Virus record (IMG/VR): IMGVR_UViG_3300037424_000495
Location: 64,001 to 128,000 of that record
Strand: one strand, 5' to 3'
DNA from: a virus
Taxonomy: Duplodnaviria > Heunggongvirae > Uroviricota > Caudoviricetes
DNA: 64,000 nt
A program made the translations under genes and the position numbers. The notes under the pieces were generated by a model that ran no database searches, was not told the origin of the DNA, and saw nothing but the letters and a program-made list of their open reading frames with translations. This document shows positions 8,056 through 53,919 of this stretch, in pieces (the stretch's first letter is position 1; each line of letters opens with the position of its first letter).

Positions 8056-8610
8056 ATGTCGTCTATCAAATCCGTACTAGAAGCACTCCGCACTGAACGT
8101 GAATACCGACGACGCCGATGGGGACACCGGCAGCCAGATGGTTCGATGATTGAAACTCCACATTCAATTGCGGATTTCATACTTTATATGCAAGACTACT
8201 ATCATGAAGCACGCCACCAATTGGTACGCGAACCTGGAATCACTAACACACTTAATACGTTACGTAAACTTATTGCACTCGGCTTTGCTTGTCTCGAACA
8301 ACATTACGGTTGTGGTCCCGTTGGTCATAAAAGACATGGTTATCCAATGTCTTTTGATGAATTGTATGCGGCATTCTTAACAGAAACAATAATCGAGCAT
8401 CCTAACACTGATTTCAGCACATTCATGTTTAAAATTAACCTTAGAATCGAAAACGCAGCCTTTAAAGCCGTTCGCATGGATTCAATAGATGCACTTCACA
8501 ATATCTACGCCGCTGTCCTACTAGGTATTGAATGTTTCAATAAATTTGGCATTGAATCCCGCGATCTAACACAACCCATCATCAATGCCCGCGATGGATT
8601 ACCTGCTTAG
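8056..8610 (+). CDS. Hypothetical helical protein (possibly MazG/dUTPase-like fold)
   Basis: EREYRRRRWG...LRKLIALGFACLEQH; fold call tentative. Confidence 0.5.
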   Translation: MSSIKSVLEALRTEREYRRRRWGHRQPDGSMIETPHSIADFILYMQDYYHEARHQLVREPGITNTLNTLRKLIALGFACLEQHYGCGPVGHKRHGYPMSFDELYAAFLTETIIEHPNTDFSTFMFKINLRIENAAFKAVRMDSIDALHNIYAAVLLGIECFNKFGIESRDLTQPIINARDGLPA

Positions 8611-8615
8611 ACTCT

Positions 8616-8975
8616 ATGAAGATTTGCATCATATATTCTAAACGAGTTCCCAAATGGTCCGTTAAGCTTGCTGAGTGTTTCCTTTCTTGGCTCGCACAAA
8701 ATCAAACGCTTAACCACAGTCTGCAAGTTTATCTACTCTCAACTAACCATATTAAAACATGCAAGGGACCGGCATGGGGCTTCTTTTCTCCCGGATGTCG
8801 GCCAACCATTGCCATCGCTTGCAAGAGGCCAGGGCTATTTAGTCTGCTTGACACGCTGGCTCACGAGTGGTGTGAATATGAAAAGTGGCGAGATGGTAAA
8901 GTCCGCAATCACCGTGGGTTGCAAAATCGCGTAGACGCACTGATTCAGCGCTTTCACTTGGAGATTGAGAAATGA
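8616..8975 (+). CDS. Hypothetical protein, possible zincin-like
   Basis: LDTLAHEWCEY is only a partial HExxH match. Confidence 0.45.
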   Translation: MKICIIYSKRVPKWSVKLAECFLSWLAQNQTLNHSLQVYLLSTNHIKTCKGPAWGFFSPGCRPTIAIACKRPGLFSLLDTLAHEWCEYEKWRDGKVRNHRGLQNRVDALIQRFHLEIEK

Positions 8976-9475
8976 CAAATACTGCACTCGTGGAACGTCT
9001 CTACGAACTGGCAACAAAACTCTGGTTTCGCTTTGTCAATGCACCCGGTGGCCACCCTGGTATTCCGGGGCCGGCAGGTGGTAATGAACCGTGGGATGCG
9101 ACTACAAGCACCCTCGAAGGTGCTGTCAGGACATTGGAAGAAGTTTTAGCTCAACCTGAACAATCAGCTTTAAATATACTTCGTCGCCTTGACGATGCTG
9201 ATGCTTTCCAAGTTGACACGGATTTGCTAAATGTTCAAGAGCATGACAAATTGAAAAAGATTCAAGGCGACGCCGAAAAATTACTAGAAAACACCAAGAA
9301 CATACCAGACCCGATCCAGACCCTCCGCGACCTATTTGACGCCGGCGGCCTGGACGATCACTTTTACCGTATCCGCGACAGCGAAGGTCAGGGGTGGGAA
9401 GGTCCGCGCATGTTAAAATGGGGCAAAGCTTGTGAAAATGCGCATAAATTGATGGACAACTCCAATAATTCGTAG
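8972..9475 (+). CDS. Hypothetical protein
   Basis: ATGA overlap, in operon chain. Confidence 0.6.
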   Translation: MTNTALVERLYELATKLWFRFVNAPGGHPGIPGPAGGNEPWDATTSTLEGAVRTLEEVLAQPEQSALNILRRLDDADAFQVDTDLLNVQEHDKLKKIQGDAEKLLENTKNIPDPIQTLRDLFDAGGLDDHFYRIRDSEGQGWEGPRMLKWGKACENAHKLMDNSNNS

Positions 9476-11473: not shown

Positions 11474-11746
11474 ATGGGAAAGCGTAAGCCCGAAAGATAC
11501 AGTGACCGCTGTTTAGACGACACTCCCCGCCATCTTAAGCGTGGCAAGCAAGCTAAAAGATTCGGCTTTCAAGAATGGTCACATTTCTATCAAATATGGT
11601 TACCGCCACGTTGGTTTGCAACAGAAAAAGGACGCAACCAAGCTCTGGAAGATTGTAAAAGAAAGGAAATTACACGCAGACGATCCCACACGCTATCCCT
11701 CATACCACGTTACCGATTACGAACAAAAGCATCCGATCAGACCTAA
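11474..11746 (+). CDS. Small basic hypothetical protein
   Basis: GGAG RBS; K/R-rich. Confidence 0.5.
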   Translation: MGKRKPERYSDRCLDDTPRHLKRGKQAKRFGFQEWSHFYQIWLPPRWFATEKGRNQALEDCKRKEITRRRSHTLSLIPRYRLRTKASDQT

Positions 11747-12149: not shown

Positions 12150-12425
12150 CACGCACGCACCTTTTTAACCGCATCATTACCGCCATTGCTTTGATTCTTT
12201 TAGCTGTGATCATAGGCAACTGGCTTTCCAAACCGCCAGTGACGGCTGCACCAACTCAAGTGCAAACAAATAGACGCTAAATCAAATGAAATGAAACAAC
12301 AAGAAGAATCCCATAATCTATTAGCTGGTGCGCCCGTAACCGCTTATTTCCACCCACGAAATACAACAATGGCCTGCGGAAGGATTAGATTAAATGCGAG
12401 CACTAAATCTTCAAGGAGAAACAAT

Positions 12426-12656
12426 ATGAACTCTTGGTGGTTAGATACTTGTCTTATCGGCTCTTGTGGTTTGACAATACTTGTCTTTGTAGGCATCCCG
12501 ATCTACGAACATCCAAAGCTAGCGGCTGTCATTGCTGCGGCTATCGGCAGTTGCATCATTGCATCCTTGTTAATTGGGCTACTGTGGCGAGGCGTCCCTA
12601 AACTGTGGTCAACAGTTAAACAATTGTTTCAAATTCAGTCAAAACATGACTTTTAA
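12426..12656 (+). CDS. Two-TM membrane protein
   Basis: AAGGAG RBS before ATG 12426. Confidence 0.6.
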   Translation: MNSWWLDTCLIGSCGLTILVFVGIPIYEHPKLAAVIAAAIGSCIIASLLIGLLWRGVPKLWSTVKQLFQIQSKHDF

Positions 12657-14807: not shown

Positions 14808-15151
14808 GAACCAACAAAGAACCAATCATCACTGTCTCAAGAATACCTAACAGGTCGTAAGCCGTCAACCACAGGCATTCCAACCATCTCTTAAAATTTT
14901 ACTCCAAAAAATTGTACCGTCAGTGATTTAACCATAGAAACCAAACAGGATTTATATGCTATTAAACCACTGAGAATTCTACGGACCCCTCAGTATAAGT
15001 GAGCTAAAAGCAACGACTGTCATAGACATTTGATTACACGAATTTTGAAGGTTGCGCATAGGAGATTTCCCGACCCCAACCATCATTTGTAGGGTAGAGT
15101 TTTATTATAGGCAAATACAATCCATTCAACTGGGACATCCTCGTCCCCCAG

Positions 15152-15760
15152 ATGAATAAATGTGGAGCACCTATGAGAGGCACAACAATAAACACACACC
15201 TTGAAGAACTGTCCGACGAGCAGTTAATGGATGTACTGCAAAATGGTAATCAGGATGCCTTCACCATCCTTTATAGGAGGTATTACCCCAAAGTAAAGGG
15301 GAATGTCTGCAATCGACTTCGTGGTGAGTTAGCCGCCGACGCTGACGACATTGTTCAATCCGTTTTTCTTACTCTACATCGCTGTACCGAACGCTTTATT
15401 CGCAACAGTTTTGTATCCAGTTTTCTTTTGGCGACCACACACCGTCTCATTGTAAATCACTTGGAGCACGCACACAGGCAGAAACGGGATGTACGACGCC
15501 AAGGTTACGTCATCCATGAGAAATTGGCTGACAATCGTGCCTCGGAAAAGGCCGAAGCCGCCGAAGCCGCCGCCCATTTCCTTGAACGACTCACGCCGGC
15601 AGAGGCCGAAATCGTGCGTCTAATCGACATTGAAAGCAATACAGCCAAGGAAGCAGCCGTAATTATTAACGCCCCCATGACCACGGCTCAATGGCGATAC
15701 CGAAAAGCCTGGGAACATATCCGAGCACTCGCCGCACAGGAAGCCGTCGTCCCTGCATGA
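15152..15760 (+). CDS. ECF-type (sigma-70 group 4) RNA polymerase sigma factor
   Basis: LSDEQLM...GNQDAFTILYRRY, ADDIVQSVFL (region 2), EAAVIINAPMTTAQWRY (region 4). Confidence 0.85.
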   Translation: MNKCGAPMRGTTINTHLEELSDEQLMDVLQNGNQDAFTILYRRYYPKVKGNVCNRLRGELAADADDIVQSVFLTLHRCTERFIRNSFVSSFLLATTHRLIVNHLEHAHRQKRDVRRQGYVIHEKLADNRASEKAEAAEAAAHFLERLTPAEAEIVRLIDIESNTAKEAAVIINAPMTTAQWRYRKAWEHIRALAAQEAVVPA

Positions 15761-18006: not shown

Positions 18007-18046
18007 ATTGTTTCAAGAACATCGAAGTCGTATAGTTGGAGGCACC

Positions 18047-18520
18047 ATGCCAAGCGTCTTAAAACCGTGGGTCGAACAATTGGGTCTACGCCATCAAGGC
18101 GTACTTATGGCCTGTGTACGTGGCTGTGATAGTGTACCCAAAGAAGACCCGACGAAAGCCCTAGCCCGTTGCTTTCGTGCAACAATTCTTCAATCATTCG
18201 ATCCAAACCCCACAAGCTTCATCGAAAACGTAGACGATACTGTTCTACGTGAGCGGATGGTCGCCGTCTTAAAGAATCACGATCATTACCCAATCCACTA
18301 TCTTTTGCACCTTATGCACGGGGCCGAAATCATTGGCTATAAATGGCCTGGTTCGGCTGCTATCTGCTGGCAATGGTTCTATGAAAAATTAGCAGCCTGT
18401 TTCCATTTACACCCGGAAACAGAAGAAGAATTAGATACTCGATTAGGAGCGTGTGAAGCAAAATTTGCTCAACAAGCCGCTTCTGCTTATGATCTACTAC
18501 ACCAGCAACTACACCAATGA
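18047..18520 (+). CDS. Hypothetical protein
   Basis: GGAGG RBS before ATG 18047. Confidence 0.65.
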   Translation: MPSVLKPWVEQLGLRHQGVLMACVRGCDSVPKEDPTKALARCFRATILQSFDPNPTSFIENVDDTVLRERMVAVLKNHDHYPIHYLLHLMHGAEIIGYKWPGSAAICWQWFYEKLAACFHLHPETEEELDTRLGACEAKFAQQAASAYDLLHQQLHQ

Positions 18521-18625
18521 AACAATAAGAATGAAACAACAAGAAAGTTGCAAAGACGCATCGCCCACATTGAAGCACAACTATTTGAATTGTACCGTGC
18601 AGCCTCAATTTTACACAAATATAAT

Positions 18626-18653
18626 TTGACTTTCACCAATTTTGATGTATAGT
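18626..18653 (+). promoter_or_regulatory. Sigma70-like promoter with internal palindrome, driving tracrRNA/cas
   Basis: TTGACT-N16-TATAGT containing CACCAATTTTGATG. Confidence 0.7.
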
Positions 18654-18660
18654 TTAATTA

Positions 18661-18780
18661 GTGAAGGTGACTTGTCACCTTGAAGGTGAGAACAGCTAAG
18701 AACTTCGAGAGTCTTGCAGCACTCACCAAAGTTTCATTTCAACTCGCCTCCCTGGCTTCCGAGCCGGGGAGGCATATTTT
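18661..18780 (+). ncRNA. Putative tracrRNA
   Basis: GTTTCATTTCAA (18731-18742) is the perfect complement of repeat nt 19-30; hairpins at 18664-18681 and 18686-18727; bounded by promoter and terminator-like hairpin. Confidence 0.75.
18746..18780 (+). terminator. Intrinsic terminator-like hairpin
   Basis: 12-bp stem GCCTCCCTGGCT/AGCCGGGGAGGC, TCCG loop, then ATATTTT. Confidence 0.6.
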
Positions 18781-18792
18781 GAAAGGTGTTGT

Positions 18793-20085
18793 ATGAAAAA
18801 GACTACAAATAAAGGCGAAATAAGCCTCGCCCGGTTTGAAATACTGGGTTTGGACAAAGAAACTCGACTCCGCTGGAAAAGTCTCGCCGATACAGTTAAA
18901 CGCATGACGAATTGTTTCTATCGCACTTGGCTTGTCTGCCACACGCAAGCAGGAAATGATATAAAAATCCGTGAATACATTGCAGCCATCGGTCAGTGGC
19001 ATAAGAACGGTGCCAAAGGTACTAAACCGCAATGTGAGGTGAAATGCTTGACGCCTGAAATAACGGCGTCTATCCGTAAAGCACTTGCAAATTATTCCAC
19101 CGTCAACACACGTTGTCTTGATCTTGCAATGCAACTTTTAGGGCGACGCTTAACGACATTAAAAGCCAGTAAAAGCAATTATCCACGCTGGATACGGATA
19201 CTTGCTGATGAAGGCGAGTATCCTAATTCAAGTTCACCGCTACCGATTCCATTTGATAAGAAGAATGCCGAATTGCTACCGCCCATTGACAACGAAGATT
19301 TCCAATTCAAACTCCGAATCGATAGACTCAACCGCCCCGGCAAAATGGCAACCAGTACGCTGGATACTTTTAAATTAAAAACCCGAGGACGACAAGTTGC
19401 CAGTCAAACCGCCATTCTCTGGAAAATTGCGTCCGGGGAGTATGATTTTTGCGGTTCAAATCTTGTCTATAAAGAGGCTAATAATAAATGGTTTTTACAC
19501 ATTTGTTACCGACAGCCCGCCACAACTACTGCGGCATTAAATCAAGATAAAATCGCATTCCTACATGCAGGATTAAAACAACCCTGGCGACTACGAATTG
19601 CCGGCTATAAATTTTCAGTTGGCGGCCCGACCGGCCAGCACATTGCATATATACGCCGGCAACTATTAACAAGCCGCTGGGGGCGACAGGAAAATACACG
19701 CTATACAAGTTCCTCTGTCCGTGGGCATGGCGTAGACCGTGCTATGAAACCACTCCATTTGCCACGTTTAAAAATGCGTTGGCGGGATGCTGTAAAAACC
19801 TGTAACCAACAAATGGTCGCCAACGTGATTAGACTGTGTCAAGAAAAACAATGTGGCCAATTAGTTTATTTTCAACCCGCCGAATCGAGACGTGACACAC
19901 GCTTCTTGCATCTCGCAGGCAAAATTCCAGACCGCCATGACAGTACGAGTTGGGATTGGTATCAAGTACAAAACATGTTGTCTATTAAATGTAAAGCGGC
20001 TGGAATTGAGTTAATTGTACATAAAATTGGCGAGAAAAACATCGATTTTTCAGATAAAAAATCACCACAACTCGCAGCCGCATAA
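18793..20085 (+). CDS. Cas12f/TnpB-like type V effector, predicted nuclease-dead and C-terminally truncated
   Basis: Adjacent to array; RuvC-I-like IAFLHAGLKQP (H258 at the Asp position), RuvC-II-like CGQLVYFQP (F360 at the Glu position), WDWYQVQNML..KCKAAGI, then a stop before the Zn finger and RuvC-III. Confidence 0.8.
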   Translation: MKKTTNKGEISLARFEILGLDKETRLRWKSLADTVKRMTNCFYRTWLVCHTQAGNDIKIREYIAAIGQWHKNGAKGTKPQCEVKCLTPEITASIRKALANYSTVNTRCLDLAMQLLGRRLTTLKASKSNYPRWIRILADEGEYPNSSSPLPIPFDKKNAELLPPIDNEDFQFKLRIDRLNRPGKMATSTLDTFKLKTRGRQVASQTAILWKIASGEYDFCGSNLVYKEANNKWFLHICYRQPATTTAALNQDKIAFLHAGLKQPWRLRIAGYKFSVGGPTGQHIAYIRRQLLTSRWGRQENTRYTSSSVRGHGVDRAMKPLHLPRLKMRWRDAVKTCNQQMVANVIRLCQEKQCGQLVYFQPAESRRDTRFLHLAGKIPDRHDSTSWDWYQVQNMLSIKCKAAGIELIVHKIGEKNIDFSDKKSPQLAAA

Positions 20086-20102: not shown

Positions 20103-21118
20103 ATTGTAGTTGACCCTAATTTGAAATGAAACAACAAGTCTAAGCGACTACATTGCAAAACGCTATGTATTGTAGTTGACCCTAATTTGAAATGAAACAA
20201 CAAGTGTATATTGATAATAGAGGGTGTTAAAGGCATTGTAGTTGACCCTAATTTGAAATGAAACAACAAGGACAGAGGGCGTAAGCGGCGGATGCTTTCA
20301 ATTGTAGTTGACCCTAATTTGAAATGAAACAACAAGATATACAGTAAAAAAATTTATAGTAGAGAATTGTAGTTGACCCTAATTTGAAATGAAACAACAA
20401 GTGTATATTGATAATAGAGGGTGTTAAAGGCATTGTAGTTGACCCTAATTTGAAATGAAACAACAAGGACAGAGGGCGTAAGCGGCGGATGCTTTCAATT
20501 GTAGTTGACCCTAATTTGAAATGAAACAACAAGATTTAAGCAACCGTCAAACCACGAATATAATTGTAGTTGATCCTAATTTGAAATGAAACAACAAGGC
20601 GAAGCCTTAACACGACTAGCGGCCCTAGATTGTAGTTGATCCTAATTTGAAATGAAACAACAAGGACTGGATTGCGTGCGTCTTTGAGGCCGTCATTGTA
20701 GTTGACCCTAATTTGAAATGAAACAACAAGAAACTTCTCGGTCGCGTGCGTCAAGAGTTATTGTAGTTGATCCTAATTTGAAATGAAACAACAAGTAACT
20801 GTTGGACAACCACGGCGCTATCTGGATTGTAGTTGATCCTAATTTGAAATGAAACAACAAGTACAGGAGACTTGAATCATGGTGGCTTCACATTGTAGTT
20901 GATCCTAATTTGAAATGAAACAACAAGGTGGCCCTTCTTTGTCCGCAGTAACGGATTGTAGTTGATCCTAATTTGAAATGAAACAACAAGGACTGCATTA
21001 CAGTCGGCTTTTCTATTTTGATTGTAGTTGATCCTAATTTGAAATGGAACAACAAGATGCAAAACTACATACGATTGGTACAAATATCACAGTTGACCCT
21101 AATTTGAAATGAACAACG
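20103..21118 (+). CRISPR. CRISPR array: 16 repeats (36 bp, last degenerate), 15 spacers of 27-30 bp
   Basis: Repeat ATTGTAGTTGA(C/T)CCTAATTTGAAATGAAACAACAAG; first repeat 17 bp after the cas stop codon. Confidence 0.98.
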
Positions 21119-21223
21119 TCTGTTCCCTTTGTCACCGCCCATTGAAAACAAAACGTAAATTTTGTGCTGACTGCGGCGCACCTAAGTTACGTCATTTTAC
21201 TGAACGCTTAAAGGAGACTTTAA

Positions 21224-21712
21224 ATGAATGTGAAAGAAATAAAACAACAAAGTTACAAGCAGCAGTTACTCGAATGCTTGGCACTCCGTCAACAGGGTGG
21301 GAAGAGCGCATACAAACGCGCTAAGATTCTTCTATTTGTCTACAACGACAATGATTTTCGTCTCGACCACAATAACTTTGACGACGACAAATTGGCTAAT
21401 ATCCTCGATACATACGTCGAAGATTTAGCGATACGTTTTTGGCATCTTAAAGCTCTACTTGAATACTTTCCCGACGAGCACCAATGGGCCGAAGGCCGGC
21501 TACGCTCCATGCTCGAAGAAATGCAAACCGCACAAGATGTTCAGCAAACAAAACCTATTCAACGGCGTAAAACAGCAACAGTCGCGGAGGTCGAAGCACT
21601 TAAAAAGCAACTTACACACGAAAAAGCCCGCTGCCAACGCCTGTTAAAAGAAAACATAGCGTTACGTGAAGAAAACCAACAACTCAAACAGCGTCTTAAA
21701 AAAGCGGCTTAA
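21224..21712 (+). CDS. Coiled-coil hypothetical protein
   Basis: AAGGAG RBS; C-terminal heptads. Confidence 0.65.
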   Translation: MNVKEIKQQSYKQQLLECLALRQQGGKSAYKRAKILLFVYNDNDFRLDHNNFDDDKLANILDTYVEDLAIRFWHLKALLEYFPDEHQWAEGRLRSMLEEMQTAQDVQQTKPIQRRKTATVAEVEALKKQLTHEKARCQRLLKENIALREENQQLKQRLKKAA

Positions 21713-52422: not shown

Positions 52423-52458
52423 TTTGTAGTTGATCCTAGTTTGAAATGAAACAGCAAG
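52423..52458 (+). CRISPR. Solitary CRISPR repeat unit
   Basis: TTTGTAGTTGATCCTAGTTTGAAATGAAACAGCAAG; 33/36 identical to the GATCC array variant. Confidence 0.9.
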
Positions 52459-52473
52459 AAGGTTTAATCAACA

Positions 52474-53919
52474 ATGTTTTTACGCATTTGTAATCCTGGT
52501 GAAGCACCTGTTGAAGGTTACACGTTACTCGGTGTCAGTACAACTCGGAACTGCGGTATTGCCGGTACAATTGGGCAGTTTGGCAGCGGTGCAAAACATG
52601 CGATCAATGTGATTTTGCGGGCTGGCTTGAAAGTGATAATTTACTGTGGCCCGACGAAACTGGAATTTCTTACGTGTGACGACGAAATCAATGATGGCCT
52701 CACAACGAAGGCTGTCAAGCGTGTATTCTGTCGCATGGGTGGCACGTCTACGCGGACAATCGACTTAGGTTGGGTGCTTGATTTTGGTGCAATTGACTGG
52801 ACTGATCTTGGCATGGCGTTGCGAGAATTCATCAGTAATGCAATTGATCGCACAATTCGTCAGACAGGTGATTTTATTCCGGCGATGCGTGATGGTGATT
52901 TATCTGTCACTATGGTTGAAGATGAGAAACTGCGGGCGAAGACTGGGTACACCCAGGCGTTTATTCAGATCAATCCAGATGTGGAACAGTATCAACGGGA
53001 ATTATCACGGCGTTTTCTTCATTTTTCTGAACGTCCTGAGCAGGTTAAGCAATCACTTCTTCCGAAGGCAAATCGCAATTTGAACGGCAGTAAGGCCGCG
53101 ATGATTTATCGTGAAGGCGTATTTGTACGGGAGTTTAATGTCACCGATGCAAAATCGGTGTATGACTACAATTTTAGGGCAGATGAATTGCGAATTGATG
53201 AAAGTCGCAATAGCAGCGAATATGATGTGAAGGCTGCATGTGCAAAACTAATGCGAAAAGCAGCAGCTACCGAATTGGTGCCGGTTTTTAGAAGTCTCGT
53301 TGAAAAGGAAGAGATATTTGAAGCCGGACTAGACCCGTACTACATCTGTCCGTCATGGGAAACGCCGGGCGATGAACAGCAACAAAATTGGAAGCAGGCT
53401 TGGCAAACAGTGGCCGGTGATGCCGTGCTTTGCGGTCCGTCGGAAACGGTGATTGAATTTGTGGAGCATAAAGGTGTGGTAGCGAAGTCCATTAAGGTTG
53501 CGGCGTTGGTGGAAGTGGCCCGTCGCTTTGGAATTTTAACCGGCGATCAAGTATTGACCGACAATGAGCGCAAAGGTCGTGAAGTGCTTCCGGCTAGTGA
53601 TACAGCAATACAGGCTGTCCATACTGTGTGGAATTGGCTTGAGAAATTGCAGTTAATTAACGGGGCGACCATACCGCCGGTGGGTTGTTTTCGGGACGTG
53701 GTGAATTCAGGACAACGTCTTCTTGGTTACTGCGACGGTAAAGGCGTCTATCTGGCTGACGACCATGCTAGTGGCGGGGTGAATAAATTGCTTTTAAAAA
53801 CCGCACTGGAAGTATGTGTTCACTGGATCACAGGAGCGACAGATGGCAGCCGAGATGTGCAAGACTTTCTACTTCGGACGGTCATTGAGATCGTCACAGA
53901 GAATTGTTTGCTGAATTAG
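52474..53919 (+). CDS. GHKL-type ATPase with permuted motif order
   Basis: RICNPG and IGQFGSGAK at the N-terminus; LREFISNAID about 75 aa later. Confidence 0.7.
   Translation: MFLRICNPGEAPVEGYTLLGVSTTRNCGIAGTIGQFGSGAKHAINVILRAGLKVIIYCGPTKLEFLTCDDEINDGLTTKAVKRVFCRMGGTSTRTIDLGWVLDFGAIDWTDLGMALREFISNAIDRTIRQTGDFIPAMRDGDLSVTMVEDEKLRAKTGYTQAFIQINPDVEQYQRELSRRFLHFSERPEQVKQSLLPKANRNLNGSKAAMIYREGVFVREFNVTDAKSVYDYNFRADELRIDESRNSSEYDVKAACAKLMRKAAATELVPVFRSLVEKEEIFEAGLDPYYICPSWETPGDEQQQNWKQAWQTVAGDAVLCGPSETVIEFVEHKGVVAKSIKVAALVEVARRFGILTGDQVLTDNERKGREVLPASDTAIQAVHTVWNWLEKLQLINGATIPPVGCFRDVVNSGQRLLGYCDGKGVYLADDHASGGVNKLLLKTALEVCVHWITGATDGSRDVQDFLLRTVIEIVTENCLLN

Follow-up and report, generated by a model that had tools for sequence, protein, structure and literature searches.

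Cas12f1 guide RNAs combine a long repeat:anti-repeat stem with a short pseudoknot stem of 5–7 bp, and short pseudoknots have been reported for Cas12f1, b, g and l, whereas Cas12k has a triple helix (PMC11246509). Cutting by AsCas12f1 requires D225, E324 and D401 (10.1101/2023.07.03.547593). Dead, C-terminally truncated Cas12f proteins occur in the Bacteroidota dCas12f-sigmaE systems (Hoffmann et al., Nature 2026, PMC13472631), which use short guides, some of them targeting their own locus; these systems have no tracrRNA, and their fused guides lie downstream of the gene. The same paper mentions an array-associated dCas12f cluster (Extended Data Fig. 1a,b), in which dead Cas12f occurs near arrays with a covarying upstream RNA and for which repression was proposed; the example it names comes from a Chitinophagaceae genome and targets an efflux pump. 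Both the tracrRNA design and dead Cas12f proteins are already known. RNA-guided DNA binding without cutting, acting as a roadblock, is also described for Cas12m (V-M; PMC11013384) and for TldR (10.1101/2023.11.30.569447), which is derived from TnpB, uses one omega-type RNA and has no array. CreR RNAs and mini-arrays (10.1101/2023.03.03.530964, 10.1101/2023.03.10.532045) pair a standalone repeat with a guide against DNA upstream of a cas gene; they accompany an active immune system and make partial matches at promoters.

The locus described here lies in a Caudoviricetes genome (IMG/VR record IMGVR_UViG_3300037424_000495; 129,143 bp, rated complete), within an analysed stretch of 64,000 nt that we call the window. 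It resembles V-F1 Cas12f1 (AsCas12f1; PDB 8J12, 7WJU, 8DZJ) in its putative separate tracrRNA with a long stem and a short pseudoknot, in the fold and size of the effector and in having the spacer 3' of the repeat. It differs in that the scaffold is shorter (a core of ~81 nt, or ~103 nt as a fused scaffold, against 171 nt for AsCas12f1), the effector is without catalytic residues or zinc finger, and the system is phage-borne, with no cas1 and with two partner genes. With dCas12f-sigmaE it shares the dead, truncated Cas12f, but neither an operonic rpoE with an extension nor a single fused downstream guide was found: the tracrRNA lies upstream of the gene and an array downstream, the host phylum is probably another, the system is phage-borne, and it shows no obligate sigma factor and no sigma C-terminal extension. 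With the array-associated cluster, as described, it has in common a dead Cas12f close to an array and a covarying RNA upstream. The word Planctomycete is absent from PMC13472631, and literature searches, of incomplete coverage, found no paper on the planctomycete phage clade.

The effector and its phage setting

The effector gene (18793–20085, + strand) encodes a 430-aa protein with no Pfam match. Its predicted model (pLDDT 90) had AsCas12f as best structural match (E 5.5e-22); by fold comparison Fta dCas12f (9n9c; Z 20.7, rmsd 7.7 over 331) and AsCas12f (Z 20.4, rmsd 8.2 over 350) were tied, and Cas12m scored lower (Z 13.4). Cas12m uses a crRNA alone. By sequence profile, AsCas12f1 (5e-27) stood far above Fta dCas12f (2e-11). 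In the profile alignment to AsCas12f1, D225 (the RuvC-I Asp) was replaced by His258 and E324 (the RuvC-II Glu) by Phe360, and the protein terminated ahead of the zinc finger, RuvC-III and D401. None of 165 relatives had a C-terminal zinc finger or RuvC-III motif. The model and the profile alignment thus predict a nuclease-dead Cas12f, which very likely binds DNA without cutting it. The effector's family is large, with at least 243 clusters at E < 1e-30.

Other assignments were rejected. The Cas12f fold of an active Cas12f1 nuclease (V-F1) is present, but its RuvC D/E/D triad and zinc finger are absent. An IS200/IS605 TnpB with omegaRNA was set aside on the NCBIfam TnpB score (34.7 bits against a cut-off of 100) and on the position of the RNA upstream of the gene, and a type V-K CAST (Cas12k) because no TnsB, TnsC or TniQ was found among the genes flanking the effector. 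Intact Cas12f-like nucleases were seen in Planctomycetota (L055 and L056, with frames of 552 and 570 aa, full catalytic motifs and a zinc finger).

Loci homologous to this one were found in genomes of Thermoguttaceae and Planctomycetaceae, beside phage genes, so the host of the phage is probably a planctomycete; the neighbours of these loci include terminase, portal and integrase. In the window the effector is flanked by small phage ORFs, an AAA ATPase, a deformylase-like ORF and an RtcB-like ORF, and contexts differ among relatives. The complete phage genome yielded no cas1, no thyX and no csrA-like gene. Several related prophages have a csrA-like gene close to the module (upstream in L001–L004, L007 and L057, downstream in L014 and L034).

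The putative tracrRNA and the CRISPR array

The initial annotation had proposed that the region upstream of the effector encodes a tracrRNA with two anti-repeat segments, and both segments held up. The long one (18731–18742, +) is the exact reverse complement of repeat nt 19–30, with which it would form 12 bp, and is the sole 12-nt anti-repeat match in the 129-kb genome (~0.0008 expected per 270-nt intergenic stretch, 0.37 genome-wide). The short one, CTTGT (18671–18675, +), is complementary to the final 5 nt of the repeat and would form a pseudoknot with them; alone this match is at chance level (0.10 expected per 120 nt), and it is supported because of covariation, not because of the pentamer itself. 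One unpaired base would separate the 12-bp and 5-bp repeat pairings. The short segment sits in the 6-nt loop of hairpin 1 (18664–18681, +; 6-bp stem 18664–69/18676–81), which is followed by hairpin 2 (18685–18727, +), the most conserved part; the two hairpins and the 12-nt anti-repeat make up a core of 81 nt (18662–18742, +). The stretch 18660–18782 folds better than shuffles (z = -4.8), and the two-hairpin scaffold occurs once in the window's genome. Rfam gave no match in the tracrRNA region, and a scan of IMG/VR with the tracr motif gave no matches.

The scaffold recurs upstream of the effector in ~25 related phage loci, down to ~30% protein identity. Among 19 sequences, 90.5% of cells of the intramolecular pairs were paired and 12 of the 21 pairs carried compensatory change, for a structure drawn from the same 19 sequences, which favours the model; 0 of 500 shuffles scored as high, and slid controls gave 30–44%. 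Compensatory changes were present at all 6 pairs of hairpin 1 in these sequences. The helices of hairpin 2 were 90–100% paired and contained nearly all of the 17 invariant alignment columns; this hairpin is probably protein-bound. Between the hairpin-1 loop and the 3' end of the repeat, the five pairs were formed in 118 of the 120 cells from 24 loci; compensatory changes and at least two pair types occurred at each of the five positions, and in one subfamily (four loci) the pairing was shifted by one base. Repeats differ greatly among loci, yet every anti-repeat fits its own repeat. With registers chosen by eye and 7 distinct types, the cognate assignment ranked first for the cofolded long duplex (exact permutation 1/5040) and was among the best 2 for the loop pairing (exact permutation 2/5040), and five loci left out of model building fit equally well.

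These results confirm the candidate at 18662–18742 as a real, conserved tracrRNA, an identity that, judged by covariation, we regard as close to certain. The split into long and short repeat:anti-repeat pairings, which had been likened to V-F and V-K guides, was likewise borne out; the V-F half of that analogy stands, and the V-K half is loose, given the Cas12k triple helix (PMC11246509). Covariation and co-folding had both been put forward as checks. Covariation in homologous loci upheld the call, as did the cognate ranking of the long duplex, but when all 121 nt were folded without constraint as a duplex with either repeat strand, the energies (-19.2 versus -20.1) did not tell the orientations apart. 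For the natural fusions described below, minimum-energy folding missed the covarying structure, as expected for a pseudoknot.

Upstream of the core, a candidate sigma-70-like promoter (18626–18653, +; -35 at 18626–31, -10 at 18648–53) predicts a start at ~18660. As a pattern match (10/12) it outscores every other site in 5 kb, yet it is not significant by itself: the scan returned 14 sites where 9.7 +/- 3.2 would be expected by chance. Downstream, a GC-rich terminator-like hairpin (18746–18783, +; a pattern match) has 12 pairs at 18746–18773 and a weak U tract; L057 has a similar one, and many homologues have none. The unit of ~120 nt with its own promoter and terminator that was first proposed was right in its small size, but the conserved core is shorter, and both signals are pattern matches. 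The terminator probably leaks into the effector gene, and because no other promoter-like site precedes the ATG at 18793, the tracrRNA probably doubles as the 5' leader of the effector mRNA. An open frame of ~43 codons (18521–18652), in frame past the stop of ORF 18008–18520, overlaps the promoter and is possibly a small gene.

The CRISPR array (20103–21121, +) comprises 16 repeats of 36 nt and 15 spacers of 27–30 nt, of which 13 are distinct, spacers 2 and 3 recurring exactly as 5 and 6 (20169–20497). Repeat variants with C or T at position 12 are arranged in blocks over the same stretch. The terminal repeat (21086–21121) is degenerate and without the pseudoknot end. Together with the tracr:repeat covariation and the relatives' guides 3' of a single repeat, this fixes the array orientation as +, with the spacer 3' of the repeat, in agreement with the initial annotation. 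The 5' half of the repeat (20103–20138) and the 36/30 geometry (repeats of 36 nt, spacers of 30 nt) resemble type II-C repeats read backwards, but a type II-C-like reading on the minus strand was rejected in view of covariation and the position of the relatives' guides. Repeat 5' halves vary widely among relatives and may mimic host repeats to borrow Cas1-Cas2.

Repeat sequence was also found outside the array. An orphan 3' half-repeat of 14 nt (18530–18543, +), with a 13/14 copy at 18516–18529, lies upstream of the tracr promoter; it had to be rejected as the true anti-repeat of a minus-strand array, since it copies the 3' end of the repeat directly and the conserved scaffold sits at 18662–18742. 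Another, of 17 nt (12287–12303, +; 0.0007 expected by chance), overlaps the ATG of ORF 12291–12656, and a near-full repeat (52423–52458, +; 33/36) ends 15 nt before the ATG of ORF 52474–53919. All three sites are at gene junctions, in + orientation, and keep the tracr-pairing end; they are possible extra guides or recombination scars. The sequences downstream of them gave no clear target.

Window spacers had no target in the phage's own genome (best 21/30). Targets bearing the relatives' flank motif were not above chance (5 matches against 5.4 shuffled), and matches in 401 genomes of the phylum, in INPHARED phages and in PLSDB stayed at chance level. Two exact spacer 18-mers were absent from IMG/VR.

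Relatives with a single repeat or a fused guide

Most related loci carry arrays. In six loci of the tree the tracrRNA is accompanied by a single half-repeat, located where the effector gene ends, and in L003 and L004 the anti-repeat and repeat are joined by a short loop, forming one guide upstream of the gene. We rooted the effector tree with the two active Cas12f-like proteins L055 and L056, a distant outgroup. In this tree the window's effector branched first, then L057, which has an array, and then the single-repeat clade (95/90), inside which the fused pair L003/L004 (100/100) was nested. This order suggests that tracr and repeat collapsed stepwise into a natural one-piece guide in related phages. 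A path from array to half-repeat to fused guide has been proposed for Sigma-TnpB (Altae-Tran et al. 2023, PMC10691335); here the states form a nested series on a tree.

All six single-guide loci for which upstream sequence exists have a guide that matches one homologous site, located on the opposite strand 200–400 nt before the tracrRNA (L003 3484–3498, L004 3794–3808, L007 7560–7574, L002 3587–3601, L009 7662–7676 and L014 57–71). Guides agreed with their cognate self site at 99 of 120 nt, against 11.3 of 20 for non-cognate sites (permutation 1/720, which overstates independence, as the six loci are kin); read with this kinship, the statistics indicate maintenance and not independent origins. 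Conservation was 66% in the self site, 50% in the PAM-side flank and ~30% in other flanks, and the shared 5' flank, TTA-S-Y, may be the PAM.

The self site corresponds to the EIRxY stretch of a phage thyX gene, of which the single-guide loci keep only a broken or nearly erased copy; in L057, thyX is intact and no guide is directed at it. Single guides that co-vary with a decayed upstream thyX site suggest autoregulation. A retained self-target under selection is hard to reconcile with cutting, and on the simplest reading the self-targeting spacer would be kept as a roadblock in the transcript entering the tracr-effector operon, although the site lies in a decayed coding region and not in a recognisable promoter, which counts against autorepression. 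The clade also differs from CreR in that no guide other than the self guide was found beside the gene and in the location of the site within the decayed thyX.

Several other arrangements were observed. The locus L006 (5204–10500), on a 364-kb phage contig, contains the tracrRNA in four copies, along with two effector genes in tandem and several short arrays. At L042 (~8337–9061; G002:C1 near 1370371), 22 kb from L009 in the same genome, a second set of half-repeat, guide, zinc-ribbon and coiled-coil genes stands without an effector. L058 carries a palindromic motif (TACTGACA, 3–4 nt, TGTCAGTA) in at least five copies (361, 3281, 5092, 11479–11500 and 14931–14955), twice directly after terminal repeats; it has three identical spacers and no partner genes.

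Possible outputs of the dual RNA and its effector

In our judgement the tracrRNA and repeat probably form the type V-F-like dual RNA of a phage-borne, nuclease-dead Cas12f and guide it to bind DNA without cutting, as a roadblock. The tracrRNA would be transcribed from ~18660. As the covariation shows, it folds into two hairpins and pairs with each repeat twice, over 12 bp with its 3' end and over 5 bp with the hairpin-1 loop; the spacer thus comes immediately 3' of the pseudoknot. The effector would load this dual RNA, probably as a dimer like Cas12f, find matching DNA and stay bound to it uncut, blocking transcription or replication. Since none lies in its own genome, the targets of the window phage would most likely be foreign: competing phages, plasmids or host genes. 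With no cas1 of its own, the phage would have to obtain its spacers through host Cas1-Cas2. Sister-clade loci combine this scaffold with one fixed guide against the phage's own upstream DNA, which would most simply serve operon autorepression. Repression is the outcome that we likewise consider probable; no target was found for any window spacer, and we therefore infer the output in the window phage from its relatives.

Two further genes follow the array. A small zinc-ribbon ORF (CxxC-x10-CxxC; 21109–21324, +) has its ATG inside the terminal repeat, and a 162-aa protein (21224–21712, +) consists of a helical N-domain and a C-terminal coiled coil. The two genes overlap out of frame, and the overlap recurs in relatives. 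Fold and family searches with the coiled-coil protein matched only generic coiled coils, and a suspected resemblance to DUF3102 was not recovered. The zinc-ribbon ORF was not supported as a split-off Cas12f zinc finger, given its spacing and its weak Pfam matches of zinc-ribbon/DZR type.

Of 37 loci with sufficient flanking sequence (near-duplicates counted), 35 have these conserved partners alongside the effector, across different phage regions and even where gene order has changed (L022). Such linkage, in a family whose effector has lost its own zinc finger, would fit a dead Cas12f that serves as a targeting platform and recruits the zinc-ribbon and coiled-coil proteins to the R-loop, where they would supply the activity. 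We hold this to be the less probable course: L058 and L035 have no partner genes within the available locus sequence, no catalytic motif or known fold was found, and the linkage is equally explained if the partners are regulated cargo of the operon.

The dead Cas12f could alternatively activate transcription by recruiting the phage ECF sigma factor (15152–15760; 202 aa), as in Bacteroidota dCas12f-sigmaE. That gene lies 3 kb from the effector, with genes between; homologues lie 0.5–3 kb upstream in the window and in L001–L004, L007–L009, L023, L030 and L057, and the C-terminal truncation of the effector resembles that of Fta dCas12f (9n9c, Z 20.7). No sigma homologue was found, however, within 6–10 kb upstream in L006, L024, L058, L059 and L061, five long and distant loci, so the link is confined to one related phage clade and looks like synteny. 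Region 4 of the window's sigma factor ends near residue 191, which leaves no room for the C-terminal extension of the partner sigmas (PMC13472631), and the effector profile favours AsCas12f1 over Fta dCas12f by the wide margin given above. The missing sigma in distant loci and the missing extension make sigma-coupled activation a weaker reading, and an unlikely one.

Action mainly on RNA is more doubtful still. The tracrRNA would here pair with repeats in phage transcripts to process them or block their translation, with DNA binding secondary. The three orphan repeats lie on the transcribed strand at gene junctions with both pairing segments kept, and their duplexes are computed at -9 to -15 kcal/mol; the zinc-ribbon ORF has its ATG within the terminal repeat, and tracrRNAs can convert mRNA into guides (PMC11246509). 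The orphans may nevertheless be recombination scars, and arrays broken up by genes are common in relatives; DNA recognition is also what the co-varying DNA target and its conserved 5' flank point to. That the locus is a decaying remnant, or the complementarity a matter of chance, as the dead effector, missing cas1, duplicated spacers and lack of found targets might suggest, is very improbable in view of the intact 430-aa frame, the size of its family and the compensatory RNA changes, and covariation largely refutes it.

The preferred reading, a DNA-binding roadblock, bears on the use of the scaffold. Compactness, originally pointed out as useful for a CRISPRi/a tool, is real but not unique, Bacteroidota dCas12f guides having 85–105 nt (PMC13472631); use in CRISPRi is plausible, and use in CRISPRa is unsupported. 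Covariation defines a minimal scaffold, about half the AsCas12f1 length, for a 430-aa effector predicted to be naturally non-cutting. The natural single-guide fusions L003 and L004, and the six matched guide-target pairs with a candidate PAM flank, would allow a compact CRISPRi test without guessing.

More tentatively, the loci may represent an undescribed large phage family in which an 81-nt tracrRNA and a dead Cas12f serve as a programmable platform with two partners and a new output, one lineage having been domesticated to a self-regulating fused guide independently of the Bacteroidota sigma-coupled systems; we give this broader picture a minor share of our confidence. In a separate lineage, the nesting of arrays, single repeats and fused guides on the tree supports the evolutionary path put forward for Bacteroidota dCas12f.
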